The notes under the pieces were generated by a model. That model was given only the letters and a program-made list of their open reading frames with translations. It did no database searches and was not told where the DNA came from. Both the position numbers and the translations under genes were made by a program. Below, piece after piece: positions 703 through 22,181 of a stretch of 25,965 bases of DNA. Position 1 is the first letter of the stretch, and each line of letters begins with the position of its first letter. Source of the stretch: Okeania sp. (GTDB taxonomy: Bacteria > Cyanobacteriota > Cyanobacteriia > Cyanobacteriales > Microcoleaceae); NCBI RefSeq assembly GCF_035285525.1, contig NZ_JAYKGW010000081.1, positions 1 to 25,965 of the forward strand, given 5' to 3'.

Positions 703-770
703 GCTCGTCTTGTAGTAAGCGTTTTAGCACTAAAATAATTAACTTTGTAGAGATTGCTTCGGCTAGTAAA

Positions 771-799
771 TTGACTCTTTTTTTAAGGTTGAGTGTAAT
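771..799 (+). promoter_or_regulatory. candidate sigma70-type promoter for the 918-4352 gene
   Basis: TTGACT (771-776), 17 nt, TGTAAT (794-799), about 120 nt upstream of ATG 918. An AAGGAAG Shine-Dalgarno-like motif lies at 905-911. Motif match only. Confidence 0.35.
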
Positions 800-917
800 A
801 TTACCGCCTCCCTGCGGACAAGCACAATCTTTTTAATCGGTACTTTATTTAGTTGCAAATCCCTTACTACTAATTAACTCAAACTAAAAATTTTCAACAA
901 AACAAAGGAAGAAAACA

Positions 918-4352: not shown

Positions 4353-4395
4353 TAGTGGTAGTAGGAGGGCGATAGTCTTTCTACCTCATTTTGAT

Positions 4396-4418
4396 AGAAT
4401 AGACAAACTGTCTATTCT
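4396..4418 (+). terminator. possible rho-independent terminator after the PPC-array gene
   Basis: AGAATAGAC (4396-4404) pairs with GTCTATTCT (4410-4418) around a 5-nt loop, followed by a T-rich stretch (gcctttaattttcctatttt). The stem is AT-rich and there is no clean U-run. Confidence 0.35.
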
Positions 4419-4491
4419 GCCTTTAATTTTCCTATTTTCAGCATTGGTAGTGCATCTAGTGTTTTCACACAAAACTTAAGTATAGGAAGCT

Positions 4492-4557
4492 AGAAACCTG
4501 GTTTTTCCTAGATGTCTATTGTCAAAAACAATGATTTATCTGGGAAACCGGGTTTCT
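4492..4557. repeat. small dispersed repeat: AGAAACC(n)GG ... tagatgtctattgtcaaaaacaatgattta ... ACCGGGTTTCT
   Basis: Long-range inverted arms flank a core that recurs almost verbatim at 23011-23060 (agatgtttattgtcaaaaacaatgatttac). The AGAAACCCGGTTTCT palindrome also occurs at 11110-11125 and 17219-17232. Confidence 0.7.
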
Positions 4558-4788
4558 TTTTATTTATCCCCCTTTGATGCGCTATCCCTGATCAGGAACT
4601 CCTGAAACCCTTGTGGGAGCAGGGGAGAAGGGAGAAAACATCATACTAGCTAAGTAAAACTGCTTAAGCGATCGCTCTTCTAATGTGTTTTTTTATACAT
4701 TTTTCTCCAGAAAAAGGCGAACTAAGACTTACACATAACTGGTCATTAATGCCCAAGTTTTATGAAAAGCGAGAGATGTTTATAAAGC

Positions 4789-4874
4789 ATAGCTTTGAAA
4801 GGGGGGCAGAAGAGATAGCTTTGAAAGGGGGGCAGAAGGTATCCCCACAACCCCCCTTTGAAAGGGGGTAGAAG
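4789..4874 (+). repeat. 26-bp-period tandem repeat (ATAGCTTTGAAAGGGGGGCAGAAG x2 plus a degenerate palindromic third unit)
   Basis: Units at 4789-4812 and 4815-4838 are identical. 4853-4874 contains cccctttgaaagggggtagaag. Related gaaagggggg motifs occur at 21850-21880 and 21975-22000. This repeat explains the spurious ORF 4683-4871. Confidence 0.75.
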
Positions 4875-4945
4875 ATGCAAAGTTTTTCATTAACTAATTA
4901 TGCGGATTCTATATCAGTCCTGATTGATTAGTACAGCCGAAAATT

Positions 4946-4972
4946 GTAGGGGTTTGGTCTCCAAACCCCCCA
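4946..4972. repeat. GTAGGGGTTTGG-loop-CCAAACCCC hairpin repeat
   Basis: A 9-bp stem GGGGTTTGG/CCAAACCCC (4949-4957 and 4961-4969). The same motif occurs at 12445-12501. Confidence 0.6.
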
Positions 4973-5014
4973 CGAGTTCATAGTCGTTATTCCATATTCC
5001 TCAAAAAAAAAATT

Positions 5015-6967
5015 ATGGCCAAGACAACTAAAAGCCAAATAACCAAAGTAGTAGATAACAAAGGCGGTTTAGACCCAGACATAGTAGACGTAACTATTGT
5101 ACCTGGAGATGATGTCACAATTGACATCACTGCCAACGTTACGAAAAACAGTTCCACAAAGCAACCTCTAGACCTAGTTTTTCTCGCCGACCTTTCCGGT
5201 TCCTATAGCGATGACTTGCCAGTATTGCGGGACTTAGTTCCCAAGCTGGTTTCCTCTGTTCGAGATGTCCAGCCAAATAGTCAATTTGGTTTAGCATCTT
5301 ATGTTGACAAACCAAAGTCTCCCTTTGGCAATAGCGGGAGCGGGGACTATGTATATAAGACAGAGCAAGAACTAACCAAATCTAAGAACGATTTTCAAGA
5401 CGCGATGGATAGCTTGAAAACTAGAGTTGGTGGGGACTTTCCAGAATCTCAACTTGAGGCATTAATGCAGGTAGCTCTCAGGGAGGAAGAAGTAGGCTAC
5501 CGTAAGAACTCTCGCAAGGTGGTGGTTCTCTCTACTGATGCTGACTATCACGAAGCAGGAGACGGAAAGAAAGGAGGTATCACAACTCCTAATAATGGGG
5601 ATGCAGTTCTTGATGGTACACCAGCAGGTACAGGGGAAGATTATCCCAGTGTTGCTCAAGTCAGAGATGCTTTGCAAGAAGCAGGTGTGGTTCCGATTTT
5701 TGCTGTTACTAGCAATCAGAAAACAAACTACGAAAAACTGGTTGATAAATTAGGTTTTGGTGCAGTAGAAGTATTATCGCGAGATAGTTCTAACTTAGTC
5801 AAAGTAGTAACCAATGGTTTAGAAGAAATCTTCAGCGATTTAACCATGGTATCTCAAAGTGATGATTTTGGTTACGTTAAAAAAATTAAGCCTGCTACTT
5901 ACGAAAACGTCCGTTCTGGGGAAAGTCGCACTTTTGAAGTGACACTGGGTACAAAAGATATGACTGCTGGTGAAGACAGTCTTTCTTTAGAAGTATTGGG
6001 TTACGGAGAAACTGTGGTTAATGTTAGCACTTTTGTGAATACAGACCCTGTAGCGAGAAATGACAAGAATAAGAAAAAACTCACCACCGATGAGGGTAAA
6101 AAATTGATCATTAGACCAGGAGTATTACTGGCAAATGATACAGATGCAGATGGTGACAAGCTAAGTATTACCAAGGTCAGCAATGCAGACAATGGTAAAG
6201 TGAAACTTGCCAAAAACGGTAAAATAACTTTTACCCCTGATAAAAACTTTAGTGGTAACGCAAGTTTTGAATACATTGTTGATGACGGCAATGGAGGTAC
6301 TGATACTGCTAAAGTTACTGTCAAAGTAGAGGAAGGTAATAATAAGCCAGTTGCAAAGGATGACGCCACTTTTTTCTTCTGGAATAAAGCTCGTACTATT
6401 GAAGCAGAAGATTTATTAGAGAATGATAAGGATAAAGATGGCGATAAGTTGACTATTACTAAAGTCAGCAAACCTACAAACGGAACAGTGAAATTAGATA
6501 AAAAAAGTGGTGAAATAACTTTCACTCCTGATACAGACGTTATCAAGGGGAGTTTTGAGTACACTATTAGCGATGGGAAAGGTGGTCGAGATACGGCTAA
6601 AGTAGAGCTGGGAGCGCTCGGAGACCGTTCGGCGATCATGCCTCGTTCTGCTAAAGTAGATGACTTAACTGGTGCAGAAGAAGGAGAACGCTTTGTTTAC
6701 GACGACTTGCTAGATGCGGGCAACAATATCACTAACTTTGAAGTAGGTGACGATATCATTGTTCTTAGCAATGTATTAGGAAGTGTTGGTTATGAAGGCA
6801 GTGATGCGATCGCTGACGAGTATGTTCGAGTTGTATCCAAAGGTGCAGGAGCGATGGTGCAGATTGATCCCGATGGTCCAGAAGGTCCTGAAGGCTTTGC
6901 TCCATTCCTTTCTGTGAGAGGAGTAACAGCAGAAGTTTTAAATGACTCTAGTAACTTCGCGTTTTAA
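5015..6967 (+). CDS. secreted adhesin-like protein: integrin-beta-like hybrid/betaI (VWA) head, 2 cadherin-like repeats and a type I secretion C-terminal target domain
   Basis: 650-aa ORF. Residues ~50-275 align along their length with my memory of the human integrin beta3 betaI domain (details in findings): [62 protein letters not shown]...[19 protein letters not shown]. Residues ~344-438 and ~443-532 are two [18 protein letters not shown]...G.V.L...G.ITFTPD...G..SFEY...DG.GG.DTAKV units of cadherin-like/VCBS type. Residues ~545-650 ([16 protein letters not shown]...[16 protein letters not shown]...YVRVV...[10 protein letters not shown]...FLSVRGV) look like the VC_A0849-subclass T1SS C-terminal domain. 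There is no N-terminal signal peptide. Confidence 0.85.
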   Translation: [650 protein letters not shown]

Positions 6968-6987
6968 TCTAACCAGAGAAAGATGAT

Positions 6988-7030
6988 ATAGGTAGTACAG
7001 GCAAAATGCCTATGCTACCTATGTTTTTTT
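6988..7030 (+). terminator. rho-independent terminator after the integrin-beta-like gene
   Basis: ATAGGTAG (6988-6995) pairs with CTACCTAT (7015-7022), with an inner AGGC/GCCT pairing. A T7 run follows at 7024-7030, about 20 nt after the stop codon. Confidence 0.6.
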
Positions 7031-7763: not shown

Positions 7764-7787
7764 GTTACTTTTAATTATTGTTTCTAT

Positions 7788-7905
7788 TAGACATCTCCAA
7801 AAATAAAAAATCAAATCAATTCTTATCCATAAATTATCAATTATTTCTTCCTGTTCCCAGTTAAGTGTTCTTAGTTAAGTGTTCCCTCTTGTCTGGAGAT
7901 GTCTA
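7788..7905 (+). mobile_element. MITE family B copy (118 bp), with TAGACATCTCCA ... TGGAGATGTCTA termini
   Basis: 12-bp perfect TIRs at 7788-7799 and 7894-7905. The internal sequence is roughly 80% identical by eye to the reverse complement of 22061-22181. Confidence 0.75.
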
Positions 7906-9029: not shown

Positions 9030-10997
9030 ATGAGTTATTGCCTCAATCCTCAATGCCAAAATCCTCAAAATCCTGAAGGGACATTATATTGCCTTGCCTG
9101 TGGAGCAAAATTGCTGCTGAGAGAAAGATATCGCCCTATGAAACCTATCGGTAGAGGTGGGTTTGGTCGGACTTTTCTGGCTGTAGATGAAGATAAACCT
9201 TCTCATCCCCCTTGTGTAATTAAACAATTTTTACCTCAACATACTGGGGACCCTAAAAAAGCTGCCGAGTTATTTCAACAAGAGGCAGTTAGATTAGATG
9301 AACTTGGTAAACATCCACAAATTCCTGAATTATTAGCTCACTTTGAACAGGATAATAATCAATATTTAGTACAAGAATTTATTGATGGTTCTAATTTAGC
9401 TGCAGAGTCAATTAAAAGGGGTCCTTTTAATAGTAATCAAATTAAACAAATTTTAAATGAATTATTACCAGTTTTACAATTTATTCACGAACATAAAGTA
9501 ATTCATCGAGACATTAAACCAGAAAATATTATTCGTCGTAATTCTCCTCCACAAGTTACTGGATGGATGAATAATACTAATCAATTAGTTTTAGTTGATT
9601 TTGGGGCAGCTAAAGTGATTACTGGAACTTCCTTAATGCAGCCAGGAACAATTATTGGTAGTCCGGAATATGTTGCTCCAGAACAGGTAAGAGGTCATGC
9701 AATTTTTGCCAGTGATATCTATAGTTTGGGAGTAACTTGTATCTATTTATTAACTCAAGTATCTCCTTTTGATTTATTTGACGTAATGAAAGATAAATGG
9801 GTATGGCGAGATTATTTAAGTCAACCTATTAATAGTGTTTTAGCCAGAATTATTGATAGGATGCTGGCCACTAATCCGCAAATGCGTTACCAGTCTGCGG
9901 CGGAAGTAATGAAGGAATTAAATCCACAACAGGAAACTCCTGTTCTCCCTAATATTCCGGCACCGACACCATCTCCAACTCCTATTCAACCAACTATATC
10001 CACATACACACCTCCGCAACCGCAAGCAAAACCAAAGACCAGTTCGATGACAGCACCGCCTCATATTGTGCAACCGACGGTTATTCCTCAACCAAAACGG
10101 TCAACTTGGAAATGTGTTTTGACTTTGACCGGACATTTTGACTCGGTGAATACGGTAGCGTTTAGTCCCAATGGAGAAATATTGGCGAGTGGGAGTCGCG
10201 ATAAAACTATTGAAATTTGGGATATGAAGAAAAGCAAACGTTGGTTTACTCTGACTGGTCATGGTGACTCTGTGCAAGCGGTCGCGTTTAGTCAAGATGG
10301 AGAAATGTTGGCGAGTGGGAGTCGGGATCAGACTATTGAAATTTGGGATATGAAGAAAGGCAAACGTTGGTTTACTCTGCTTGGTCATTCTGACTGGGTG
10401 GATACGGTGGCGTTTAGTCCGGATAGTCAAATGTTAGCAAGTGGAGGTAGAGATAAAACTATTGAAATTTGGAATTTGCGGAAAGCAAGGCGCTGGTTTA
10501 CTTTAAACGGGCATGACGATCGGGTTTATAGTGTTACTTTTAATCAAAATGGGGAATTTTTGGCAAGTGGTGGTCGCGACCAAACTATTAAAATATGGAG
10601 TTTGGAAAAGGGGAAAGAGTTATTTTCCATTAAGGGTCATTCTGACTGGGTGCGATCGCTAAGTTTTAGTCAAGATGGTAAGGGTTTGGCAAGTGGGAGT
10701 CGGGATGGCACGATTAAGTTATGGCAGGTTTATGGAGGGGAACTTATTTCCACACCTGTACAAAATTTGAAATATGGTATGAGTGATGTTTTATCGGTGA
10801 CGTTTAGTCCGAATGGCAAAATAGTTGCGGGTGGATATCGGAATGGGAATATTAATTTATGGGATGCTCTCACTGGGGAATTATTGGAAACATTGAATGG
10901 TCATAAGAGTGATGTGTTTTCAGTGATGTTTAGTCAGGATGGTAAGAGTTTAGCAAGTGGGAGTAATGATAAAACCATTAAAATTTGGCAACAGTGA
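9030..10997 (+). CDS. Ser/Thr protein kinase with N-terminal 4-Cys zinc ribbon and 7 C-terminal WD40 repeats
   Basis: CLNPQCQNPQNP...YCLACG zinc ribbon. Kinase motifs GRGGFGRTF, VIKQF, HRDIKPEN, DFG and SPEYVAPE are present. A Pro-rich linker (PNIPAPTPSPTPIQP...) follows, then seven GH...(ASG)S.D.TI.IW(D/N/S/Q) repeats. Confidence 0.9.
   Translation: MSYCLNPQCQNPQNPEGTLYCLACGAKLLLRERYRPMKPIGRGGFGRTFLAVDEDKPSHPPCVIKQFLPQHTGDPKKAAELFQQEAVRLDELGKHPQIPELLAHFEQDNNQYLVQEFIDGSNLAAESIKRGPFNSNQIKQILNELLPVLQFIHEHKVIHRDIKPENIIRRNSPPQVTGWMNNTNQLVLVDFGAAKVITGTSLMQPGTIIGSPEYVAPEQVRGHAIFASDIYSLGVTCIYLLTQVSPFDLFDVMKDKWVWRDYLSQPINSVLARIIDRMLATNPQMRYQSAAEVMKELNPQQETPVLPNIPAPTPSPTPIQPTISTYTPPQPQAKPKTSSMTAPPHIVQPTVIPQPKRSTWKCVLTLTGHFDSVNTVAFSPNGEILASGSRDKTIEIWDMKKSKRWFTLTGHGDSVQAVAFSQDGEMLASGSRDQTIEIWDMKKGKRWFTLLGHSDWVDTVAFSPDSQMLASGGRDKTIEIWNLRKARRWFTLNGHDDRVYSVTFNQNGEFLASGGRDQTIKIWSLEKGKELFSIKGHSDWVRSLSFSQDGKGLASGSRDGTIKLWQVYGGELISTPVQNLKYGMSDVLSVTFSPNGKIVAGGYRNGNINLWDALTGELLETLNGHKSDVFSVMFSQDGKSLASGSNDKTIKIWQQ
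10185..10436 (+). repeat. intragenic 126-bp tandem repeat (WD40 units 1-2 and 2-3)
   Basis: 10185-10262 and 10311-10388 differ at 6 of 78 positions by hand alignment. The following ~48 nt of each unit are much more diverged. Confidence 0.8.
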
Positions 10998-11189: not shown

Positions 11190-11246
11190 TAATAGTTAAT
11201 GTTTATCCGAACATAATATTGTAGTTTTCATTATCAATACTCTTCA

Positions 11247-11274
11247 CTACTCCCTACTCTCTACTCCCTACTCC
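11247..11274 (+). repeat. heptamer tandem repeat (CTACTCC/T)x4, STRR-like
   Basis: Ends 4 nt from the cheB stop codon (11279-11281, minus strand). In cheB mRNA sense it reads GGAGTAG repeats. The same heptamer occurs at 19632-19652. Confidence 0.8.
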
Positions 11275-11278
11275 CTGA

Positions 11279-12397
11279 TTAATTATTAATTATCATAAGT
11301 AATTTCTGACTAATATCATTGATTGGCAAAATATATTGAGCAGCTCCCAAAACAATAGCTTCTTTAGGCATACCAAATATGATAGAAGTAGCCTCATTTT
11401 GAGCAATTGTCAATCCACCAGATTGAGCGATCGCCTGCATTCCATCTGCTCCATCTCGACCCATTCCTGTTAGTAAAACCCCTATAGAAGAGGAGCCATA
11501 AAATTTAGCAATTGAATTAAAAGTGACAGTAATTGAAGGGCGATGTCCTCCAATTGCTGGTGTTTTTGAACAGACAAATTTACCCCTATTATCTAATTCT
11601 AAATGATGCTTTTCAGGTGGGAAATAAATTACGCCAGCTTTTGGCAATTCTCCGGAAATAGCAATTTTTATTGGTAGTTGACATCCATTAGCTAACCAAT
11701 TTATTAAACCATTTAAAAATCCATTACTAATGTGTTGAACACAAATTATTGGTAGAGGAAAAGTTGAAGGTAAATTATGAAGAATAGTTTTTAAAGCTTG
11801 AGGACCACCAGTAGAAGCTCCGATTGCTAAGACTTTAATATTTTTGGCAGAACGAGGATATTTAAGTATAGTTTTAGGAGTATCTACAAGATAATTTTTA
11901 ACTAGCTTATCTTGTATATTTCTGATAAATAATTGTTGTTGACGTTCTTGGTTAATCTGCCGACGATGTAGGGTAAAAACTTTAACCCCAGAAAGAATTT
12001 TAATCTTATTAATTAATTCTTGCTTAATCGCATCATAATCTGAATTTAATCCAGTTTCTGGTTTAGGAAAAACATCAACAGCTCCTGCCTCTAAAAGTTG
12101 AAAAACATTTTCGGTATCATGTTCTTGAACGGAGTTGCTAATAACTAAAATTGGTCGTGGGTATTCGTGCATAACTTCCCTAGTAAATTCTAATCCATTC
12201 ATAAATGCCATGTGTAAATCAGTACAAATTACATCTGGCTCGATTTTTGGGATTAGTTTTAATGCCTCTAAACCATTTTGAGCTGTACCTACAACTTCAA
12301 TTTCTGGAGAGGTAGCAAAAATTCTTTTGAGAATTATTAAAGCTACTGGTGAATCATCAACAACTAATATTTTAATGACTTTTCTTTTCTTTGTCAT
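11279..12397 (-). CDS. cheB: chemotaxis response regulator protein-glutamate methylesterase/deamidase
   Basis: N-terminal receiver (ILVVDDS, phospho-acceptor context VICTDLHM). C-terminal CheB_methylest-type domain with the catalytic Ser in IGASTGGPQAL, His in CVQHI and Asp in TGMGRDGADG. 372 aa. Confidence 0.9.
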   Translation of the reverse strand: MTKKRKVIKILVVDDSPVALIILKRIFATSPEIEVVGTAQNGLEALKLIPKIEPDVICTDLHMAFMNGLEFTREVMHEYPRPILVISNSVQEHDTENVFQLLEAGAVDVFPKPETGLNSDYDAIKQELINKIKILSGVKVFTLHRRQINQERQQQLFIRNIQDKLVKNYLVDTPKTILKYPRSAKNIKVLAIGASTGGPQALKTILHNLPSTFPLPIICVQHISNGFLNGLINWLANGCQLPIKIAISGELPKAGVIYFPPEKHHLELDNRGKFVCSKTPAIGGHRPSITVTFNSIAKFYGSSSIGVLLTGMGRDGADGMQAIAQSGGLTIAQNEATSIIFGMPKEAIVLGAAQYILPINDISQKLLMIINN

Positions 12398-12444
12398 TTG
12401 ATTTATTCAGGAAGTAAGAAGTAAAAAGTAAAAAGGAATTTTTC

Positions 12445-12501
12445 GTAGGGGTTTGGAAACCAAACCCAAGTAAAAATCGGATTTGAAAAGCAAACCCCTA
12501 C
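12445..12501. repeat. GTAGGGGTTTG ... CAAACCCCTAC inverted repeat with a nested GGTTTGG-aaa-CCAAACC hairpin
   Basis: Outer arms at 12445-12455 and 12491-12501 are perfectly complementary, with an inner 8-bp stem at 12449-12467. It lies in the divergent cheB/MCP intergenic region and has the same motif as 4946-4972. Confidence 0.6.
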
Positions 12502-12729
12502 AATTTTTTTTAACTTACTTATTATATCAATTATACTATTAAATTAATCAAGTAGTTCCAGAGGAAATAAATATAGAATAGATGTTAGTATGCTGTAATA
12601 CTAACTTTTAGTTCTCCTTGGAGACTAATTTTTTCTTCCAGGGTAATGAGATAATGAGTTAATAATTTATAGCTGATAGCTAACGGCTGTTTGCGCAGCA
12701 TTACGCAGTAAACACTCACTAATAGATCA

Positions 12730-14172
12730 ATGAATCTTAGACAAGTTTTACCTGTAGGAGTAATCATAATTATTGCTACATTTGGAATTAGTAATATTTT
12801 TTCTCAAAGTAGTATTCGTACTTTGAAAGAATCTTCTGAATGGGTTGCTCATACCTATCAAGTTAAAAGTTTATTAAAAGGATTAGAAAAAACTTTAGTT
12901 GATGCAGAAACAGGACAACGGGGATTTATTTATTCTGGTCAAGGAAATTTCCTCGAACCATATAATTTAGCTCAACAAACAATTGATGATAATTTAGATG
13001 AACTTCAAGCTAAAATATCTGATAATCCTGAGCAATTAAAAAGATTGGCTAAAATTGCAGATCTAACAGAATCTAAAATATCAGAATTAAAAGAAACTAT
13101 AAAACTAAAAAGAGCTGGTGAAGAAAAAAAAGTAAGACAGTTAATATTATCTGGTTTAGGTAAACAGATAATGGATGAAATTAGACAAAAAATTGATGAG
13201 ATGATGGCAGTAGAAGACCAACTATTGAATGAAAGAAAAAAACAAGCAAAACAGGCTTTTCAGTTAGTCATAATTATTTCCTGGAGTAGCTTGATGATAG
13301 TTGTGATAGTAAGTATAATTATCATATTTTTGATTAATAAAATTGCTATTCAACCTATTAATATTATAGCTAATTTGATTGCTACTTCTACTAATGAAAT
13401 TTCTGCTACAGTCGAACAACAAGAACACACTGCTTTTGTACAAGCTAATTCTGTTCATACTACCACTAACAATATGGATGAGTTAGGAGCATTTTTTCGT
13501 CAGTCTTCCCAAGAAGCAAATGCAGCTAATAATACTGCTCAATTAGCTTTAGAAGCAGCAGAAAAAGGAAGCGATACTGTCTGTGAAACATTTGATGCTA
13601 TGAATAATTTAAAAGTAAAAGTAGAGGCGATCGCTCATCAAATTTTTAGATTAAATGATCAAATAAATCAAATTGGTCAAATTTCTCAAATGGTCAGTAA
13701 TTTAGCAAATCAAATAAATATGTTAGCTTTGAATGCGAAGGTAGAAGCGGTGCGTGATGGAGATAATACTCAAGGTTTTTCTGTTGTTGCTGCTGAAATT
13801 AAGAAATTGGCAATACAGAGTAAATTATCTGCGGAAAAAATCAGAATTTTAGTAGAGGAAATTCAAGATTCAATTCATGCAACAGTATTGGTAACTAAAG
13901 AAGGAATTAGAACTGTAGAATTGGGAATGAAAATAACAGATCAAACAACTGCATCTTTTTCTAGAATAACTAAGTCGGTAAATAATGTAGTTATTAATAA
14001 TCAACAAATTTATTTGAATATTCAACAGCAAGTTCATGGTATTAAACAAGTATTAGAAGCAATGGAAAATATTAATCAAGTAGCAAAGGAAACGGCATTA
14101 GGAATTGGTCAAACTCATTCAGGTGTGGAGAGTTTAAAGAAAGCAGCAGAAAAGTTGAAAAATATAGTATAG
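12730..14172 (+). CDS. methyl-accepting chemotaxis protein with a CHASE3-type periplasmic sensor and a divergent hairpin tip
   Basis: TM1 VLPVGVIIIIATFGI. CHASE3-like WVAHTYQVKSLLKGLEKTLVDAETGQRGFIYSGQGNFLEPYN. TM2 LVIIISWSSLMIVVIVSIIIIFLI. The MCP signalling domain reads NMLALNAKVEAVRDGDNTQGFSVVAAEIKKLA. 480 aa, collinear with the MCP at 19655-21106. Confidence 0.85.
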   Translation: MNLRQVLPVGVIIIIATFGISNIFSQSSIRTLKESSEWVAHTYQVKSLLKGLEKTLVDAETGQRGFIYSGQGNFLEPYNLAQQTIDDNLDELQAKISDNPEQLKRLAKIADLTESKISELKETIKLKRAGEEKKVRQLILSGLGKQIMDEIRQKIDEMMAVEDQLLNERKKQAKQAFQLVIIISWSSLMIVVIVSIIIIFLINKIAIQPINIIANLIATSTNEISATVEQQEHTAFVQANSVHTTTNNMDELGAFFRQSSQEANAANNTAQLALEAAEKGSDTVCETFDAMNNLKVKVEAIAHQIFRLNDQINQIGQISQMVSNLANQINMLALNAKVEAVRDGDNTQGFSVVAAEIKKLAIQSKLSAEKIRILVEEIQDSIHATVLVTKEGIRTVELGMKITDQTTASFSRITKSVNNVVINNQQIYLNIQQQVHGIKQVLEAMENINQVAKETALGIGQTHSGVESLKKAAEKLKNIV

Positions 14173-14238
14173 TTAATAATGAATAATTAATGAGTTTAAT
14201 TCTTCGGTCGTTAATTATTGAAAAGGAGCTTTAAAATT

Positions 14239-14421
14239 TAATCCTATTGATAACTAATAACTGAAAAAAGGGAATTGACAAAAAAAATTTGACATGATAC
14301 TATAAGCATAATGGAGAAGGTGCGCTCATATATACTATATTGAATTTATTTCAATTAGAAAGCTTTTTCTATGATTTCCTCATTTTTTTGAATATTTCTC
14401 TCTTCATTCCTTCTTCCTTCT
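14239..14421 (+). repeat. 183-bp direct repeat, copy 1
   Basis: Identical to 14481-14663 at 182 of 183 positions (g14306 versus a14548). Compared base by base by hand. Confidence 0.9.
14275..14303 (+). promoter_or_regulatory. near-consensus sigma70 promoter inside repeat copy 1
   Basis: TTGACA (14275-14280), a 17-nt spacer ending in the extended -10 TG (14295-14296), then TACTAT (14298-14303). ATG at 14311. Confidence 0.5.
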
Positions 14422-14480
14422 CAAACTCAAATAATCTCTGAGTAAGTTTAAACATTTATAAGTTTCCTCAACTATTTGTC

Positions 14481-14663
14481 TAATCCTATTGATAACTAAT
14501 AACTGAAAAAAGGGAATTGACAAAAAAAATTTGACATGATACTATAAACATAATGGAGAAGGTGCGCTCATATATACTATATTGAATTTATTTCAATTAG
14601 AAAGCTTTTTCTATGATTTCCTCATTTTTTTGAATATTTCTCTCTTCATTCCTTCTTCCTTCT
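14481..14663 (+). repeat. 183-bp direct repeat, copy 2
   Basis: See copy 1. It ends 13 nt before the cheA stop codon (14677-14679). Confidence 0.9.
14517..14545 (+). promoter_or_regulatory. near-consensus sigma70 promoter inside repeat copy 2, pointing into the 3' end of cheA
   Basis: TTGACA (14517-14522), 17 nt with TG at 14537-14538, then TACTAT (14540-14545). Confidence 0.5.
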
Positions 14664-14676
14664 TATTTCCTCCTTC

Positions 14677-17094
14677 CTAAACTAATCTTTTTAAAGTTTC
14701 TAAAAGAACTTCTTGATTAAAATTATCTTTAGGAATGTAAGCATTAGCTCCTAATTCTGCACCTTTTTGTTTATCTTGATTAGAGGATAAAGATGTTACT
14801 AAAATAATAGGTAATTCACTATATTTTTTATTCTCTCTAATTTTAGAAGTTAAACTAAAACCATCCAAATTAGGCATTTGTACATCAGAAACTACTGCAT
14901 CAACAGAGCGAGTTTGTAACTTATTAAAAGCATCTAATCCATCAATTGCCGTAATAACTTCATAACCAGCACTTTCCAAAATTCTTTTCTCTTGAGTTCT
15001 GGTAGAAATAGAATCTTCTGCTAATAAAATTACAGATTTTTTATTAATTATTTCAACTTCTGCTAATTTATTACTTGACTCCTGAATAAATTGAGAAGTA
15101 TTAATAGATGTAGATATTTTCCGCGCTGACTTAAGCAAATCTTGAGGATTTAAAACCATACAAACATCACCAGTACCAAGAATAGTTGCACCAGCAATAT
15201 TTCTCACCCGTTTCAATAATTTACTTTGGGGTTTAAGTACAACATCTTGCTCATCAATTAAACTATCAACAAATAATCCTAATTTTTCATTTCCTACTTT
15301 TAAAATAATGCAAGGTTTCTCTATTTCATTAGCAACTTTCTCCTGATTAATAACTGAAACTTCTAGCAAATCTGCAAGTTGAGCAACAGATACTGGTTCA
15401 TTATTAAAAATAATAGTATCCCTACCTTCAATAGTAAAAATTGATGCTGTAGAAACTATGAAAGTTGTTTTAACAGACTCAACTGGCAAAGCATAATAAG
15501 TATTTTCAATTCCTACAATTAATACATTTATTGTAGCGAGGGAAGCACTTAATACTACTTTGATAGAACATCCTTTTTTGGGCTGAGATTCTATAGAAAT
15601 ATTTCCTTTTAATTCTTCTACATTTGTCTTAACTACATCTAAACCGACACCTCTACCAGAAACTTCAGTAACAAATTTTTTAGTAGAAAATCCAGGGGTA
15701 AAAATTAGAGATTGAATTTGTATTTGTGTCATATACTCTAATTCATATTCATTACAAATACCCTGTTTTATTGCTGTTTTAGTAATTTCGTTAATATCTA
15801 AACCCCGACCATCATCTATCACTTCAATTATTACATTAGTTGCAGTATTATATGCTCTTAATTTAATTGTAGCGACTTCTGATTTTCCTAACTTTTTACG
15901 TTCTTCAGGTGTTTCAATTCCATGATCTATAGCATTACGAATTATGTGCATTAAAGGGTCTTTCATCTGTTCAATAATTCGCTTATCTGCTTTAGTATTT
16001 CCCCCTTCAATTATTAGTTCTACTTTTTTACCTTCTTGTCTAGCTAAATCTCTGACAACTCGGGGGAACATATTAAAAATAGTAGATAAAGGTAGCATTC
16101 GCAGAGTACGAACTCCCATTTCTATTTCATTACTAATTAAGTCAAGTTTAGCCACATCTTCATAGATGGAATTTCTGAGATTATTAATTAATAGCCCTAG
16201 CTTTTCTAGTTGTTCTTCGGCTCGATGATGATAACTTTGTAATTGTTTAATTGAGTAATCATTAATAGTGGTGCTATTACTAACATTTATATCATGGATA
16301 ATAAAGCGATTTCTAAACGTATCTCTACTCCAGTCTTCCCACAAATTTGCGATTTCTTCTATTTTTGCTACTCGGTGAGCAAGTCGAATTTGAGTGACAG
16401 TTAATTCCCCAGTTTGAGTCATCAAAGAATCTAAATTTCGAGTCGGTACGCGGACTGTTTCAATATGGTAAGAATTTGATGAAGTATGGGAAGATTGAAT
16501 GCTAAGATTAGTTTCATTTTTAGTGAGAGATAAAGCTGATTTAGAAGTTATTTTTTCTTTATTGTCTGGAGCTTTTTCTGCTGTTGTTTCTAATTCTATA
16601 TTTGAGGATGATAAATCATTTTCATTGATTTTTTCTGCTTCTACAGAAGTATAATTAATAGTATTTTCTTGAGGATTTGAATTAGTTTTATTTTCTGTTT
16701 TTGATTGGGGATTAAGATTTTTAGCACCCATCAAATTTGCTAAGACATGAACAGTATTAATACCTGATGGTTCTCCAGTAACTGCCTCTTGTACAAGTTT
16801 ATAAATAGCATCTAATCCAAGTGAAAGGCGATCGCTTATTTCTGGAGAGATAGTTTTTTCTCCTCGTTTAATTTCTCCTAATAAATGTTCTATTTGATGA
16901 GCAATTTGAGATACATCTCTAACTCCTAACATTCCAGCATCACCTTTTAAACTGTGAGCTTCTCGTAATAATTCTTCTAATTTTTCTAAGTCTTTTGGAT
17001 ATTTTTCTAAGTATAAAAAACCTTCCTCAAGCTTTTGGATATGTTCTTCGCTTGCTGTTTGAAATACTTCCCGAAGTTCAGCATCTTCAATCAT
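14677..17094 (-). CDS. cheA: hybrid chemotaxis histidine kinase CheA (Hpt, long dimerisation region, HATPase, CheW-like P5, C-terminal receiver)
   Basis: Hpt with EAHSLKGDAGMLG. Low-complexity N/S/T/E linker. Dimerisation helix TVRVPTRNLDSLMTQTGELTVTQ. N box HIIRNAIDHGIE, G1 DDGRGLD, G2 GRGVGLDVV. CheW-like NVLIVGIENTYYALPVESV...GATILGTGDVCMVLN. REC ILLAEDS...VVSDVQMPNLDG...AYIPK. 805 aa. Confidence 0.9.
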   Translation of the reverse strand: MIEDAELREVFQTASEEHIQKLEEGFLYLEKYPKDLEKLEELLREAHSLKGDAGMLGVRDVSQIAHQIEHLLGEIKRGEKTISPEISDRLSLGLDAIYKLVQEAVTGEPSGINTVHVLANLMGAKNLNPQSKTENKTNSNPQENTINYTSVEAEKINENDLSSSNIELETTAEKAPDNKEKITSKSALSLTKNETNLSIQSSHTSSNSYHIETVRVPTRNLDSLMTQTGELTVTQIRLAHRVAKIEEIANLWEDWSRDTFRNRFIIHDINVSNSTTINDYSIKQLQSYHHRAEEQLEKLGLLINNLRNSIYEDVAKLDLISNEIEMGVRTLRMLPLSTIFNMFPRVVRDLARQEGKKVELIIEGGNTKADKRIIEQMKDPLMHIIRNAIDHGIETPEERKKLGKSEVATIKLRAYNTATNVIIEVIDDGRGLDINEITKTAIKQGICNEYELEYMTQIQIQSLIFTPGFSTKKFVTEVSGRGVGLDVVKTNVEELKGNISIESQPKKGCSIKVVLSASLATINVLIVGIENTYYALPVESVKTTFIVSTASIFTIEGRDTIIFNNEPVSVAQLADLLEVSVINQEKVANEIEKPCIILKVGNEKLGLFVDSLIDEQDVVLKPQSKLLKRVRNIAGATILGTGDVCMVLNPQDLLKSARKISTSINTSQFIQESSNKLAEVEIINKKSVILLAEDSISTRTQEKRILESAGYEVITAIDGLDAFNKLQTRSVDAVVSDVQMPNLDGFSLTSKIRENKKYSELPIILVTSLSSNQDKQKGAELGANAYIPKDNFNQEVLLETLKRLV

Positions 17095-17109
17095 AATTAG
17101 TTATAAATT

Positions 17110-17144
17110 ATTAGTTATATATTATTAGTTATTAGTTATCAGTA
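17110..17144 (+). repeat. heptamer tandem repeat (ATTAGTT-type, 5 units), STRR-like
   Basis: attagtt atatatt attagtt attagtt atcagta, located 16 nt upstream (in gene sense) of the cheA start codon. Confidence 0.7.
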
Positions 17145-17203
17145 AGACTGACGCCAAGCAACCAAAAAACTGGGTTTATTGTCGTGATATTGCTGATAAA
17201 TTC

Positions 17204-17243
17204 AGGAACTTTCCGCAAAGAAACCCGGTTTCTGCGTAAGTCC
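17204..17243. repeat. SDR family C-type unit enclosing the AGAAACCCGGTTTCT palindrome
   Basis: AGGAACTTtCcGCA-AAGAAACCCGGTTTCT-GCGTAAGTCCc, related to 11088-11137 and 7675-7763. Confidence 0.6.
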
Positions 17244-17292
17244 CGATCGGTTATTATTTTGAGTGCATCTCATATTCCCAAAAATACTTTTT

Positions 17293-17383
17293 TTCCTATT
17301 CCTTATTTCCTATTTCCTATTCCTTATTTCCTATTTCCTATTCCCTTTTTCCTGTTACCTGTTCCCTATTCTCTGTTCCCTAT
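17293..17383 (+). repeat. heptamer tandem array, 13 units of TTCCTAT/TCCTTAT/TCCCTAT type
   Basis: Ends 1 nt before the stop codon (17385-17387) of the Cache-MCP. In mRNA sense it reads AUAGGAA/AUAGGGA repeats. This array explains the spurious ORF 17184-17570 (FPIPYFLFPIPYFLFPIP). Confidence 0.85.
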
Positions 17384-17384
17384 T

Positions 17385-19280
17385 TTAAACTATAGTTTTA
17401 AGTTTAAGTGCTGCTTCATAAAGTTTTTGAGTATTAGTTGTAACTTGGGAAATTCCCTGAGCTGTTTCCGCAACACCATAGTTAAGATTATTCATAGATT
17501 TAATCACCTTTTGAATAGCAACTTTTTGCTGTTCAGTATTATGATAAATTTCCTGATTACTAGCAAATAAATCAGAGACAACTGCTGTTAAATTTTGAAA
17601 AGTATTAGCAGTTTCTTGAGCTGTTTTAATAGTAGCATCTACTGTATTTTTGCCTTCATTTGTTACCTTTATATTAGAGTTAATTGCGGTTTTAATTTCT
17701 GGCACAATAGCATTAATTTTTTTTGCAGCTTCAGAACTTTTATCTGCTAATTTCCGAATTTCTTTAGCAACAACAGCAAATCCAGCACCTTCCTCTCCAG
17801 CTCGTATAGCTTCGACTGCAGCATTTAAAGCTAAAATATTAGTTTGCATTGCTAAAGAACTTACTAAATTTGCTAAAGCAGAAATATTACCAATTTGACT
17901 TGTTTGTTCACCAAGTTCCTGATTTTGTTGAGTAATACTATTAACAGTTTCTCTCAAATTATGCATTTGGGCAAAAGTTTTTTCTACCATTTTATTACCT
18001 TCTTCAGCTAAAGTTAAAGCTTTACTTGCTGCTACTGCAACTGATTCTGCTTTTTGAGATATTTCTTGAGAAGCTTGACCTAGAGTAGTAATATTATTAT
18101 TAGTTTCATTTGCCACTAATGACTGTTCAGATGTAATCTTTTCTTGGTGATTCATTGTAGACAGTATATTATGGGAAAAATTAGATACATTATTAATCAT
18201 ATTTCTGACTATTTTAGCTATATTAATTATATTCAACCACCCAATAGATAAAAAAGTTATTAGGGATAAAAATACAACTATCAAGGCAATATTTCTAAAA
18301 TTGTTTACTGTAGCAAATACAATTTTGTTCGGCAAATCATAAACTATAACTAAAAAGTTATTAGCATGGCTTTGTCCTAAAAGAATAGTGTTGTAAGCAA
18401 TCACCATATCTACATCATTAACAATGTAACTTTGACCTCCAGATAAAATTTGATTAGTTACTTTTTCTGAATAATATTTTTGAATTTTTTCATCCCTATT
18501 TAATTCAAAACCCCATTCTCTTTCTGCTTCAGGATGAGATAAATAGTAACCATCTTGATTAATAATAAAAGCTGTACCAAAATTGCTTTTGTTGTCTTCT
18601 TTTATTTGTTGGAAAACACGCTCAACTAGCAAGTTGCCAATTATTATTCCTTTTTGTTTACCATCGGTGGCAAAAATAGGAGTAGCATATCTAATTGTTG
18701 GTTTGTAGGGAACTTCTATTTTTCCTCTTTCGCGATTAAGATTCAAAGGCGAAACATAGACTTCACCAAAGTTAAGTTTCATTGTTTCTATAAAATAGTC
18801 TCGATTTGCTTTATTTTGTAATTGTTTTTTAGGAATAGTTTCGATAATCAATCCATCAGAATCTACCCTTACCATTTCATTGCCATTTTCATCTAAATAA
18901 CGTAACTGCATATAGTATGGTTTCCCTTGCATAAATGCTGTAAATATTGCGCTTAATCTTTCTACCCAAATATCATAAGTAGAATTATCTTTTGGGTCTA
19001 TTCCTGTGTTATTTCTAGCTCTAACAATTCCTTGAATTGGCGGTACTTTACTAATAAATAAAATATCAGAACTAATACTTTTTAAGTAGTTAACAATTTG
19101 TTCTGTACTATCATTGACTTTAGCTTGAAGATTACTTTTAGCCAAATCCTGTAAAGCATTGGTAGCAGTATTAATACTATAACCACCTACTATTAATAAA
19201 GGAATAATCATACTAAAAAATAGAACTATAATAATTTTATATTGTATTTTTATCAAAACATTATTAATCATATTTAACAT
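17385..19280 (-). CDS. methyl-accepting chemotaxis protein with a large Cache-type periplasmic sensor
   Basis: TM1 [19 protein letters not shown]. The ~290-aa periplasmic region ([12 protein letters not shown]...[19 protein letters not shown]...[29 protein letters not shown]...) has a double-Cache look. TM2 [19 protein letters not shown]. Signalling tip [33 protein letters not shown]. The exact start is ambiguous because of several nearby ATGs. Confidence 0.85.
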
Positions 19281-19317
19281 ATAAGTAGTCCTGCAAAATT
19301 AATTTCCTAGTATAAAT

Positions 19318-19376
19318 AGGGAACACTTAATTGGGAACAGGACATAAGGGAAAAGAATTGATGATTTTTTCATAAT
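19318..19376 (-). mobile_element. internal fragment of MITE family B
   Basis: agggaacacttaattgggaacagg...aagaattgatgatttt..cataat aligns with 22080-22150. Neither TIR is present. Confidence 0.5.
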
Positions 19377-19631
19377 AGCAGATATAATATAATGTGTAAT
19401 TAGAGCTTGCTAATTAAATTTCAAAGCATTTAGAGATATAGATTTGAACAATTTTAGGTGCTGATTTCTTGGGAACCATAAAAGTACCAGTTTTTCGGTT
19501 GATGGAGGGGAAAAAGTGAACCTAAATGGAGTAATTATGACAGAAAAATTAAGGAGGAATTCGCAGTTGATTTCTAGTTTTTGAATTATTTCAACCTATT
19601 TAAGATTGCTATAATTCTTTCTTCCTATTTC

Positions 19632-19652
19632 CTACTCCCTACTCCCTACTCC
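19632..19652 (+). repeat. heptamer tandem repeat (CTACTCC)x3, STRR-like
   Basis: Ends 2 nt before the stop codon (19655-19657) of the MCP at 19655-21106. It is the same heptamer as behind cheB. Confidence 0.8.
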
Positions 19653-19654
19653 CT

Positions 19655-21106
19655 TCATACAATAGACTTTAACTCTGTACTAACTTCATTAAGCTTTTGA
19701 ATCCCTTGTTGAGTTTGTCCTAAACCAGTTGCTGTTTCTTGTGCTCCAGTATTTAATTCATTCATGGCATCCACTACTTGCTTAATAGCGATCGCTTGTT
19801 GTTTAATATTAAGAGAAATTTGCTGATTATTTAATACCACATTATTAATTGCCTCTTTAACACCATTAAAAGTTGTCGCTGTTTGTTGAGCAATTTTCAC
19901 TCCTAATTCGACATTTTTTGTTCCTGCTTCTGTTGCCATAACTGTAGAATTAATTGATGTTTGAATATCAGAAACTAAGGTATAAATTTTTTCTGCAGAC
20001 TTTCTACTTTCATCAGCTAATTTACGAATTTCACTAGCAACCACACCAAAACCTTTACCATATTCTCCAGCACGAACCGCTTCTACTGCTGCATTTAAAG
20101 CCAACATATTAGTTTGATTAGCTAAGTCACTAACAAGCTGAGAAATATTACCAATTTGATTTGTTTGTTCACTTAAACGAGTAATTTGTTGAGCGATCGC
20201 CTCTACTTTTTCACTCAAAGATGCCATACTTTCTAAACTTGTATCTACCGCTTCTGTTCCTTCTTCAGCTAAACTTAAAGCTTGTTTAGCTGCTGTTGCT
20301 CCGGCTTCTGCTTGTTCTGCTGTTGCTTGAGAAGAAGCACCTAATTCATCCATAGTTGTAGTAGTTTCATTTACAGAGGTAGCTTGTTGAGCAGCAGTAC
20401 GTTCTTGTTCATTTATTGTCTCAGAAATTCCTGTAGAAAAAGCGACTATATTTTCAGTTATTGTTTTGATTTTTTGACTAAAATTACCTGTAATTAACAA
20501 TGCCATCATTATGACAATAACTATCAACAATATCGAACCTATACTGAGTAACCATAACAATATAATTAGATTTTTTTTAGTTTGTTCTGTTTCTGTTTCT
20601 AGTAGCTCTCTCTCTCCAGTTATAAGTTCATTACTTAATCTGTCAAATTCATCTAGTAATTGTTGACCTTGTAAAGTATTAAATAAAGCCACAGCTTCAG
20701 TTTGTTTACCATCTTTTACCAATTGAATAACTTGATCTGCAAAATATTTAAAATCATTTTTATCTTGCTCCATTTCTTGTAAAATTTTTTTGTATTCATC
20801 AATACTAATTGATTCCTTAAGAGACTGAATATTTGCATCTAAGGAGTTTGAAGCTTGATTATATTCGTTAATAAATATACCGTTTCGACTAGCTAGATAA
20901 CTAAGAAAATTACTAACTATTTTTTCTTCATTTAATGTCATCTTATTTATATCGAGAACTAAAGTTTGTACTCTAGCAACTTCTTTTAAAGTATCAAATA
21001 CTTTATTAGCAGTTCTATAAACTATTCCTCCTAATCCTAGAAATAAAATTACTGGCACTATATATCCTAATAAGAAAATGTTTCTGAATGTTATTTTTTT
21101 CCACAT
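19655..21106 (-). CDS. methyl-accepting chemotaxis protein with a helical (4HB-type) periplasmic sensor
   Basis: TM1 IFLLGYIVPVILFLGLGGIV. ~150-aa helical periplasmic region. TM2 LIILLWLLSIGSILLIVIVIMMALLI. Canonical tip [33 protein letters not shown]. 483 aa. Confidence 0.85.
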   Translation of the reverse strand: MWKKITFRNIFLLGYIVPVILFLGLGGIVYRTANKVFDTLKEVARVQTLVLDINKMTLNEEKIVSNFLSYLASRNGIFINEYNQASNSLDANIQSLKESISIDEYKKILQEMEQDKNDFKYFADQVIQLVKDGKQTEAVALFNTLQGQQLLDEFDRLSNELITGERELLETETEQTKKNLIILLWLLSIGSILLIVIVIMMALLITGNFSQKIKTITENIVAFSTGISETINEQERTAAQQATSVNETTTTMDELGASSQATAEQAEAGATAAKQALSLAEEGTEAVDTSLESMASLSEKVEAIAQQITRLSEQTNQIGNISQLVSDLANQTNMLALNAAVEAVRAGEYGKGFGVVASEIRKLADESRKSAEKIYTLVSDIQTSINSTVMATEAGTKNVELGVKIAQQTATTFNGVKEAINNVVLNNQQISLNIKQQAIAIKQVVDAMNELNTGAQETATGLGQTQQGIQKLNEVSTELKSIV

Positions 21107-21172
21107 AAATTTTTTCTTTTGTCCTTAATTAGTTAATTAGAATTTGCTGATTAAATATAAAGTAAGCATTCA

Positions 21173-21272
21173 TATATAATCCGGTTACAAGTGTATATGT
21201 TCATAATTTTATCTACACTTCAATCTCCTCATCTCCCACAACTATATAACGAGTATTCAACCGGATTTTATG
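21173..21272. mobile_element. MITE family E copy (TATATAATCCGGTT ... AACCGGATTTTATG termini)
   Basis: Imperfect inverted termini at 21173-21186 and 21259-21272. The internal gtgtatatgttcat recurs inverted at 7911-7922. TATAGAATCCGG-type ends also occur at 4903-4915, 7931-7946 and 25716-25730. Confidence 0.55.
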
Positions 21273-22060
21273 TCAGATCAGCAGTCAGCTGCGTCGGCTA
21301 TTATGTGCGCAATAAAATCTTTATAAATATTGCTCCCAAACCAGATTTCTTTGAACTTAAATATTGATTCATTTAAACACTATTTAAGACCGAACAATTT
21401 TGTTGCTGTTGGCGCTGCATTCCACAGAAAATGCTGACAATATCAAAACATTGATAGATCAAAAATTAGCTTTTTTTTAAGGTGTAAAAAAGTCTGCTTG
21501 TTTGACCTATTTAGAATCAAGAAAGTTACAGCGGATTCCACCAGAAGTGAGGTACGCCTACGGGAGCAAGATGTCCGCACTGAAAATAGTTTATTATTAA
21601 CATCTGTACTTGATATACTTGGAATCTGCTGTAGGATTTTTGGCAACAGTTGGGCAACAAAATTTACCTAAAAATCAAGGTATAAAACCTCTCCATTTAT
21701 GGAGAAAAAAGAAAAAAATTCATTTTCACCAATCCTCTTTTTTATAAGAAAAAATAATTATAACATTTCCCAGGTTATTCAGCAATTAACAATGAAAAAA
21801 TTAATAATTACCCTTTCTTAAAAGAAGGGGATTAACTAAAAGGAATTTTTTTTATTTATCCCCTGAAAAGGGGAGGCCTCCAGGTGTGAATTGTTAAATC
21901 AATAATTATCGACTATAAACTCTTGATTGTTAATTATTAACTATTAATTTTTTGGTAAGGTATAGTTCTGGATATATTCTCTAGCCTTGAAAGGGGGGCA
22001 CTGAAAGTTATCCTTAAAAAGGAGGAGCATTAATGTACCTCACCAGCTTGAAAAATGCTA

Positions 22061-22181
22061 TATTAATTATTAGACATCTCCATAAAAGAGGGAACGCTTA
22101 ACTGGGAAAAGGGAGCAGAAAGAAAGAATTGATAATTTATGGATAATAATTGATTGGAGCTTTTATTTTTAGAGATGTCTA
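22061..22181 (-). mobile_element. MITE family B copy (121 bp)
   Basis: TAGACATCTCCA (22061-22072) ... AGAGATGTCTA (22171-22181). The interior is the reverse complement of the 7788-7905 copy. It ends 14 nt from the queC stop codon. Confidence 0.75.

Follow-up and report, generated by a model that had tools for sequence, protein, structure and literature searches.

In the stretch of 25,965 nt analysed here (the window; Okeania sp., assembly GCF_035285525.1, contig NZ_JAYKGW010000081.1), the gene of a methyl-accepting chemotaxis protein with a CHASE3 domain (CHASE3-MCP) and the gene of a hybrid CheA run towards each other and leave between their stop codons a convergent gap of 504 nt (14173-14676), which holds two direct copies of a 183-nt unit separated by a 59-nt spacer (Table 1). 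The original prediction, made on this DNA, had taken the pair for a duplicated small RNA (sRNA) or antisense unit linked to the che cluster, and a repeat search of the window recovered the repeat, its spacer and its position behind cheA as described. The two copies match at 182 of 183 positions, the single mismatch being G14306 in copy 1 and A14548 in copy 2; a 32-mer taken from the unit has exactly two occurrences in the window and none in 100 shuffles, BLAST of the unit against the whole window revealed no third copy, and no exact match of the 32-mer was found in GTDB species genomes. CheA shows 77-81% identity with proteins from Okeania sp. SIO3I5, from Dapis spp. and from metagenome-assembled genomes (MAGs) of Trichodesmium, and for this reason the window is placed, by protein sequence, in the Trichodesmium/Okeania/Dapis clade of filamentous marine cyanobacteria.

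The first ~100 nt of each unit can be recognized as a predicted sigma-70-type promoter with its 5' leader, a combination that normally heads genes for a Ser/Thr kinase joined to an FGE-sulfatase (DUF323, CLec-type) domain, here abbreviated STK-FGE, in the Okeania/Dapis clade; in fact, 93 nt of each unit match a profile built without the window (Table 1). This module family, defined in the present analysis from Okeania, Dapis and metagenome loci, begins with GATAACT-type heptamers, which resemble the short tandemly repeated repetitive (STRR) heptamers reportedly found in filamentous cyanobacteria and occur also just before STK start codons, and with GAAAAAAGGGGG; these are followed by TTGACA, an A-run and a second TTGACA, by TG, one base and TAyyrT at 16-17 nt after the first TTGACA, and by nATAAT, which overlaps an ATG and leads into the nearly invariant leader ATGGArAAGGTGCGCTCATATATACTCAAA (from GGA onwards once the ATG overlap is set aside). 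Both copies in the window contain the same parts: the -35 TTGACA (14275-14280 in copy 1), a 17-nt spacer that holds the second TTGACA (14289-14294) and ends in TGa (TG at 14295-14296), and the -10 TACTAT (14298-14303); the -35 and -10 hexamers and the TG are placed as the original prediction had placed them. With the TG, this arrangement amounts to 10 of 12 sigma-70-type matches at a spacing within 16-18 nt.

Table 1. Features of the MCP/cheA gap and its flanking genes, in window coordinates.
Feature	Position	Copy 2	Strand	Basis or remark
CHASE3-MCP gene (CHASE3 + MCPsignal), upstream of copy 1	12730-14172		+	Pfam
Repeat copy 1	14239-14421		+	Repeat search; left ~52 nt and 66-nt left flank continuous with the Dapis BLCC M126 gap
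Repeat copy 2	14481-14663		+	Repeat search; ends 13 nt before the cheA stop
Inter-copy spacer, 59 nt	14422-14480			Compared with the cheA 3' end, left flank, Dapis gap and fetched loci
STK-FGE promoter-leader module, copy 1 (STRR heptamers, promoter and first ~29 nt of leader)	14247-14339		+	nhmmer, E=1.6e-23; alignment
STK-FGE promoter-leader module, copy 2	14489-14580		+	nhmmer, E=1.7e-23
GATAACT-type heptamer (STRR-like) tract TGATAACTAATAACTGA	14248-14266	14490-14508	+	Precedes the module in most Okeania/Dapis copies
Predicted promoter P1	14275-14303	14517-14545	+	Hexamer scan and 17-copy alignment
Second -10-like hexamer CATAAT, better conserved	14307-14312	14549-14554	+	Alignment; nATAAT in all copies but one
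Putative leaderless 10-codon mini-ORF, MEKVRSYILY and stop	14311-14343 (ATG at 14311, TGA ending at 14343)	14553-14585	+	Sequence reading
Window-specific 3' part of the unit (AT-rich hairpin, T7 run, heptamer tail)	14340-14421	14582-14663	+	Outside the profile alignment
Hybrid cheA gene (Hpt-HATPase_c-CheW-REC), target of the direction of copy 2	14677-17094		-	Pfam

The 22-mer ATGGAGAAGGTGCGCTCATATA is carried by only four metagenome contigs, in three of which the module stands upstream, on the same strand, of an STK gene starting MQSGKILRNHY or MQLGKILRNHY, while the fourth ends before any downstream gene; all three STK genes encode a protein kinase domain, and the only one that is complete, in L035, has an FGE-sulfatase domain behind it. 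In the alignment of the metagenome copies, a sharply bounded conserved island extends over the TTGACA boxes and the -10 region and into the first ~30 nt of the predicted transcript. STK-FGE genes form a large family of paralogs in Okeania, Dapis and Trichodesmium, and seven of seven further Okeania/Dapis loci (L036, L040-L045) have the module upstream of the gene on the same strand, in one to at least five copies (nhmmer E values of 1e-15 to 1e-18). In Okeania, Dapis and the metagenome taken together, every STK-FGE start with upstream sequence available (10/10) is preceded at 76-290 nt by a module on the same strand, and nhmmer detected no module outside STK-FGE upstream regions in the ~190 kb fetched from the clade, other cheA loci included. 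Conservation across 17 copies from at least eight loci or organisms extends to both TTGACA boxes (as TTG(A/C)CA), the TG, the TA that opens the -10 and nATAAT. Among gene-proximal copies, mean pairwise identity is 94% over the first 30 nt of the leader and 88% over the opening 45 nt of the kinase coding sequence. Judged from these sequences, the module family goes with kinase genes and not with che genes. The proposed link to the che cluster is not supported; the other fetched cheA loci lack a complete module. In the metagenome contig JAAUYJ010166726.1 (L034:1-240), which could represent a second non-kinase context, a module copy lies downstream of a DUF4403 gene, and the rest of the contig after it consists of a repeated segment of ~70 nt.

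The STK-FGE arrays of T. erythraeum IMS101 lack the module and have a different shared upstream sequence in its place; in consequence, the published Trichodesmium map of transcription start sites (TSSs) is not transferable to it. In particular, four tandem STK-FGE genes of IMS101 (L037/L038, CP000393, ~721-746 kb) share an upstream region of ~240 nt containing CATTATAAAAATGGGTGTTGTAGTT, unlike the module of Okeania and Dapis.

Tandem copies of the module, from two to at least five, are recurrent. In Okeania sp. SIO3B5 (L036:5056-6420, JAAHHG010000245.1) at least five copies follow each other with a period of 331 nt and 95% matches, in an array that includes an assembly gap and lies directly upstream of an intact STK-FGE gene; each 331-nt unit comprises the module, the 5' untranslated region and the first 15 kinase codons, after which a stop occurs (MQLGKILRNHYKIVQ and stop). 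Pairs of modules 414-665 nt apart are present in L040, L041, L042 and L045, and the distal copies of tandem pairs have hundreds of nt of non-coding DNA downstream.

In the window the situation is different, since the modules are followed next by the 3' end of cheA, which is encoded on the other strand, and no STK-FGE start lies within ~300 nt; the sole kinase of the window (9030-10997, Pkinase and WD40) belongs to another family and is devoid of the module. The predicted start of copy 2, at ~14552, is 125 nt from the cheA stop (14677) and is directed into cheA, in the arrangement of a cis-antisense promoter. The repeat is a tandem pair in which each copy has its own predicted promoter, as in an NsiR1-like array.

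The explanation considered the most probable, with somewhat better than even confidence, is that the two copies are active orphan promoter modules that give rise to non-coding or antisense RNA. Two orphan modules with no kinase gene behind them would reside in a plastic convergent gap and would both fire rightwards, from ~14310 and ~14552, as is expected of copies in which no conserved promoter or leader position has been lost; the promoter itself is very probably genuine, by its conservation, with starts near these two positions. The resulting RNAs, unstructured and leader-like, would read on, that of copy 1 through copy 2 and that of copy 2, after ~125 nt, into the 3' end of cheA as a convergent cis-antisense transcript; such read-through is proposed because no terminator intervenes in the 76-290 nt between the STK-linked copies and the start codon and no terminator-like site occurs on either strand of the gap (14173-14676). 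The consequence, if any, would be that cheA expression is coupled inversely to the signal that drives the kinase-family promoter, and neutral promoter noise is equally possible.

Several observations weigh against this explanation. Promoter-like hexamer pairs are not enriched in the AT-rich region (35 found versus 34.3 expected), and because pairs of such quality occur here at chance frequency, the promoter call rests on cross-genome conservation; what stands of the promoter claimed by the original prediction is therefore the recurrence of the same -35, TG, -10 and ATG leader in at least 16 copies of other genomes, and not the hexamer match itself. There are, moreover, two candidate -10 elements, and the ATG may lie in or out of the RNA depending on the choice between them: with the upstream one (TAyyrT), transcription would begin at the ATG or right beside it and the mRNA would be leaderless, while nATAAT would put the start inside the mini-ORF. 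The 82 nt downstream of the module (14340-14421) are unique to the locus, with no detectable homolog elsewhere except for the terminal (CCTTCTT)2, and nothing in them shows a transcript under selection; the hairpin, the T7 run (14383-14389), the CT-rich heptamer tail (14407-14421) and the minus-strand ORFs, MKREIFKKMRKS included, are all found within this part, as is the Shine-Dalgarno-like tract. The T7 run and the tail agree with their description in the original prediction; the (CCTTCTT)2 tail matches 7-nt-periodic STRR tracts in Okeania loci and is a common heptamer repeat of these genomes. Finally, the 59-nt spacer matches nothing with which it was compared, and in relatives the MCP/cheA gap is unrelated or filled by other tandem repeats, which fits neutral turnover.

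The latter observation leads to the strongest alternative, possible but clearly less probable, according to which the pair is an inert relic: module copies left behind by rearrangement in a hyper-plastic, repeat-rich gap, for example after the loss of a neighbouring STK-FGE gene, so that the duplication would be neutral and any transcription inconsequential. The gap does differ completely among close relatives, being unrelated to that of the window in Dapis BLCC M172 and MAG P01_H01_bin.35, and intergenic tandem repeats are commonplace in these genomes. In Okeania SIO3I5 the gene convergent to cheA is an STK-FGE kinase, so that a gene of this family does adjoin cheA there, and the gap downstream of the orthologous cheA (L002:12463-14290) contains a 164-nt tandem array of ~7 copies with 92-97% matches; the same region also holds a 25-nt array repeated 7 times and AGCTATC heptamers. 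The absence of any conserved feature 3' of the module is likewise in favour of a relic. Only Dapis BLCC M126 shares gap sequence with the window: the similarity, highly significant in either part, covers the flank of 66 nt that follows the MCP stop and the leading ~52 nt of the unit, and not the rest of the unit or the spacer; there the flank, the heptamers, the first TTGACA and the A-run are kept, after which an unrelated repeat element follows, so that the module is decayed. This ortholog illustrates what decay looks like, and against it stand the two copies of the window, intact at every conserved promoter and leader position and including a 22-mer identical to STK-linked copies of other organisms; yet selection need not be invoked for this, since the copies could be intact simply because they were duplicated or converted recently.

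The comparison with Dapis bears also on the origin of the two copies. One copy was probably already present in the common ancestor with Dapis BLCC M126, to judge from the shared left part, and the identity of 182/183 suggests that the second arose by duplication very recently or was homogenised by gene conversion; the view of a recently duplicated or homogenised small unit that bears a promoter, already advanced by the original prediction, is thus retained on the strength of this identity and of the promoter conservation across genomes. A plain tandem duplication of 242 nt followed by divergence was considered and excluded, the spacer resembling neither the cheA end (p=0.32, shuffling) nor the left flank (p=0.60); its comparison with the Dapis gap (p=0.69) and with the fetched loci likewise gave no significant similarity. 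Between the 3' half of the unit and the Dapis gap a 12-nt match, CCTCATTTTTTT, is the only similarity (p=0.06), and homology is unproven.

A bolder proposal concerns the family as a whole. The STK-FGE protein type is a target of the diversity-generating retroelement (DGR) of Trichodesmium erythraeum, which acts on at least 12 genes (Pfreundt et al. 2014, PMC4143802), and as such a retroelement-diversified protein it has been proposed to be a tunable sensor. The module could accordingly be a dedicated cassette, made up of a promoter and an invariant leader or operator of ~30 nt that surpasses the coding sequence in conservation, which co-regulates DGR-type hypervariable kinase 'sensor' genes in Okeania/Dapis-like cyanobacteria and is amplified in tandem to tune output, in which case the orphan pair would wire a chemotaxis-like motility cluster into the regulon by antisense transcription; this is regarded as rather unlikely. 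A word search of PMC10907252 and PMC7517822 found no mention of a promoter or leader shared by DGR-target genes.

Quite unlikely, too, is a stand-alone duplicated small gene, that is a trans-acting sRNA or a leaderless micro-peptide (MEKVRSYIL-), whose link with kinases would be that of an sRNA gene or upstream ORF located in front of them. The peptide version has its attractions: the first 27 nt of the mini-ORF coincide with the nearly invariant leader (ATGGAGAAGGTGCGCTCATATATAC), so that the ATG and the first nine codons are nearly invariant and the MEKVRSYIL start is kept in nearly all of the 17 copies, several of which stop after exactly 10 codons (MEKVRSYILK and stop), and the ATG lies 7-8 nt downstream of the TAyyrT -10, as for a leaderless mRNA. 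However, the distinct changes in the mini-ORF are 3 synonymous and 8 non-synonymous, with 22% synonymous expected at random, and its length is not fixed, some copies having 10 codons and others more than 37 (the stop comes at codon 11 at the earliest and past codon 37 at the latest). From these changes and the variable stop position, the region is judged to be conserved as nucleotides, and selection at the peptide level is not supported by these alignments; in the window, moreover, no downstream gene follows that an upstream ORF could regulate. The mini-ORF MEKVRSYILY is located where the original prediction had read it, with a start conserved as nucleotide sequence, and a role as a micro-peptide gene is unlikely. 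Conservation of this kind suggests a protein-binding or other sequence-specific site in the leader.

As to the sRNA version, the distal tandem copies that head hundreds of nt of non-coding DNA and the existence in cyanobacteria of multi-copy sRNA arrays with a promoter in each copy, such as NsiR1 (PMC4030482), are in its favour. Against it, Rfam 15 gave no match at the gathering threshold in the whole window, and at E<=10 the gap yielded a chance match to RybB alone (15.8 bits versus 40 required); fold stability did not exceed that of shuffled sequences on either strand or in the predicted transcript (z-scores of +0.91, -0.49 and -0.92), RNAalifold found 0 consensus base pairs in 15 distinct leaders, and the conservation of the window copies ceases ~30 nt past the ATG. 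Together with the lack of a terminator-like site, these results give no support to the structured stand-alone sRNA envisaged by the original prediction. The 0 RNAalifold pairs in the 15 leaders also rule out the leader as a structured riboswitch-like element or structured sRNA.

A mobile element inserted twice, MITE-like (miniature inverted-repeat transposable element) or in the form of a promoter-carrying transposable cassette, is very improbable. The module is indeed multi-copy, dispersed between loci and accompanied by short repeats at its flanks; nevertheless, the repeat search detected at the unit ends none of the inverted repeats proper to a MITE, in agreement with the original prediction, and the flanks differ (AAATT and CAAAC around copy 1, TTGTC and TATTT around copy 2) with no target-site duplication. 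In addition, the left edge of copy 1 is native orthologous sequence and no insertion edge, because it is continuous with the sequence of Dapis BLCC M126, the copies are confined to the upstream regions of one gene family, and searches of phage, plasmid and viral collections gave no match. Behind the truncated module in the che gap of Dapis M126 (L003:12600-12735) stands a different, MITE-like element (ACCGAAAwATTGTGGTwTrAAGCCTCC ... GGAGAGGTAATT), which is found again after the distal module of the Okeania STK locus L042 (~9240-9400).

That the repeat was collapsed or expanded during assembly is a negligible concern, although near-identical copies in a repeat-rich genome would invite it: two independent Logan unitigs of run SRR19514071 reach into the repeat by exactly 30 nt before they stop, L046 into copy 1 from the MCP side and L001 into copy 2 from the cheA side. 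At k=31 these 30 nt are k-1 nt, the point where a de Bruijn graph breaks if a repeat edge has two different neighbours, so that the duplication is present in the reads, and the copies have one fixed difference and distinct flanks.

For the che cluster, the active orphan modules favoured here would mean that the repeat is a stray duplicated copy of the promoter of another gene family and no chemotaxis-specific sRNA. The locus would be a natural example of an orphan promoter that creates convergent transcription into a signalling gene, in line with the high share of non-coding and antisense TSSs in Trichodesmium. More generally, a cassette of ~70 nt is common to STK-FGE paralogs across genera, is repeatedly found in tandem and has a leader at least as conserved as the protein-coding start; such a cassette offers a handle on the regulation of hypervariable kinase genes through pull-downs (for example with ATAATGGAGAAGGTGCGCTCATATATAC), reporters and regulon searches.

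Other parts of the window are also rich in repeats. Short dispersed repeats and heptamer tracts at 7786-7853, 11230-11293, 19613-19654, 21799-21938 and 22121-22181 are 73-92% identical to metagenome contigs (L033, L034) and are probably the MITE or STRR elements noticed by the original prediction elsewhere in the window, and the gap upstream of cheA contains heptamer tandem repeats at 17096-17143 (ATTAGTT, 6.9 copies) and 17292-17385 (TTTCCTA, 13.4 copies). The G+C content is ~41-43% in the first 7 kb (1-7000), where adhesin-like genes are located, versus 28-32% over the che/MCP cluster (12000-22000). A protein of 1144 aa encoded at 918-4352 has eight PPC (pre-peptidase C-terminal) domains and a Por_Secre_tail (type IX secretion system sorting) domain at residues 473-532, thus in the middle of the protein and not at its C-terminus, which is unusual for a cyanobacterium.

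Among known systems, the closest are the STK-FGE promoter regions themselves, with which the unit has in common 93 homologous nt, the same heptamers, the double TTGACA, the TG, the -10 elements, the invariant leader and the tendency to tandem arrangement; the copies of the window differ in having no kinase gene, in the replacement of the leader past ~+30 by unrelated AT/CT-rich sequence and in their position in a convergent gap facing cheA. STRR elements share with the unit the GATAACT-type and CCTTCTT-type heptamers, which bound it as they bound duplicated segments in Okeania loci; in the unit, however, the heptamers form the edges alone, while the core is a unique promoter and leader of 70 nt. 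NsiR1 of heterocystous cyanobacteria is a tandem array located near a particular gene, each copy of which has its own promoter (PMC4030482; Ionescu et al. 2010 cited there), and the window resembles it in its tandem copies with predicted promoters next to a particular gene; in contrast, NsiR1 is a defined RNA of ~60 nt with an Rfam-type family, whereas the unit has no Rfam match, terminator or conserved structure.

The nearest precedent within the clade is the array by Tery_0080 in T. erythraeum IMS101, in which seven tandem repeats of 736-973 bp, each with its own TSS, give the most abundant non-coding RNA of the cell on the strand opposite to the adjacent gene and hold partial duplications of the 3' end of that gene, in a genus with an unusually high share of non-coding and antisense TSSs (PMC4143802). 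Like that array, the pair in the window consists of intergenic tandem direct repeats with a TSS of their own, which here is only predicted, on the strand opposite to the adjacent gene; it differs in its dimensions (2 x 183 bp), in having no detectable cheA fragment and in being known from sequence alone, while the expression of the Tery_0080 array is proven. In this clade, therefore, tandem repeats with their own TSSs that yield abundant non-coding RNA convergent to a gene have a precedent, which supports the interpretation of the two copies as active orphan promoter modules, and the unit is a further case of a known kind, that of duplicated promoter-bearing intergenic repeats in Trichodesmium-like cyanobacteria.

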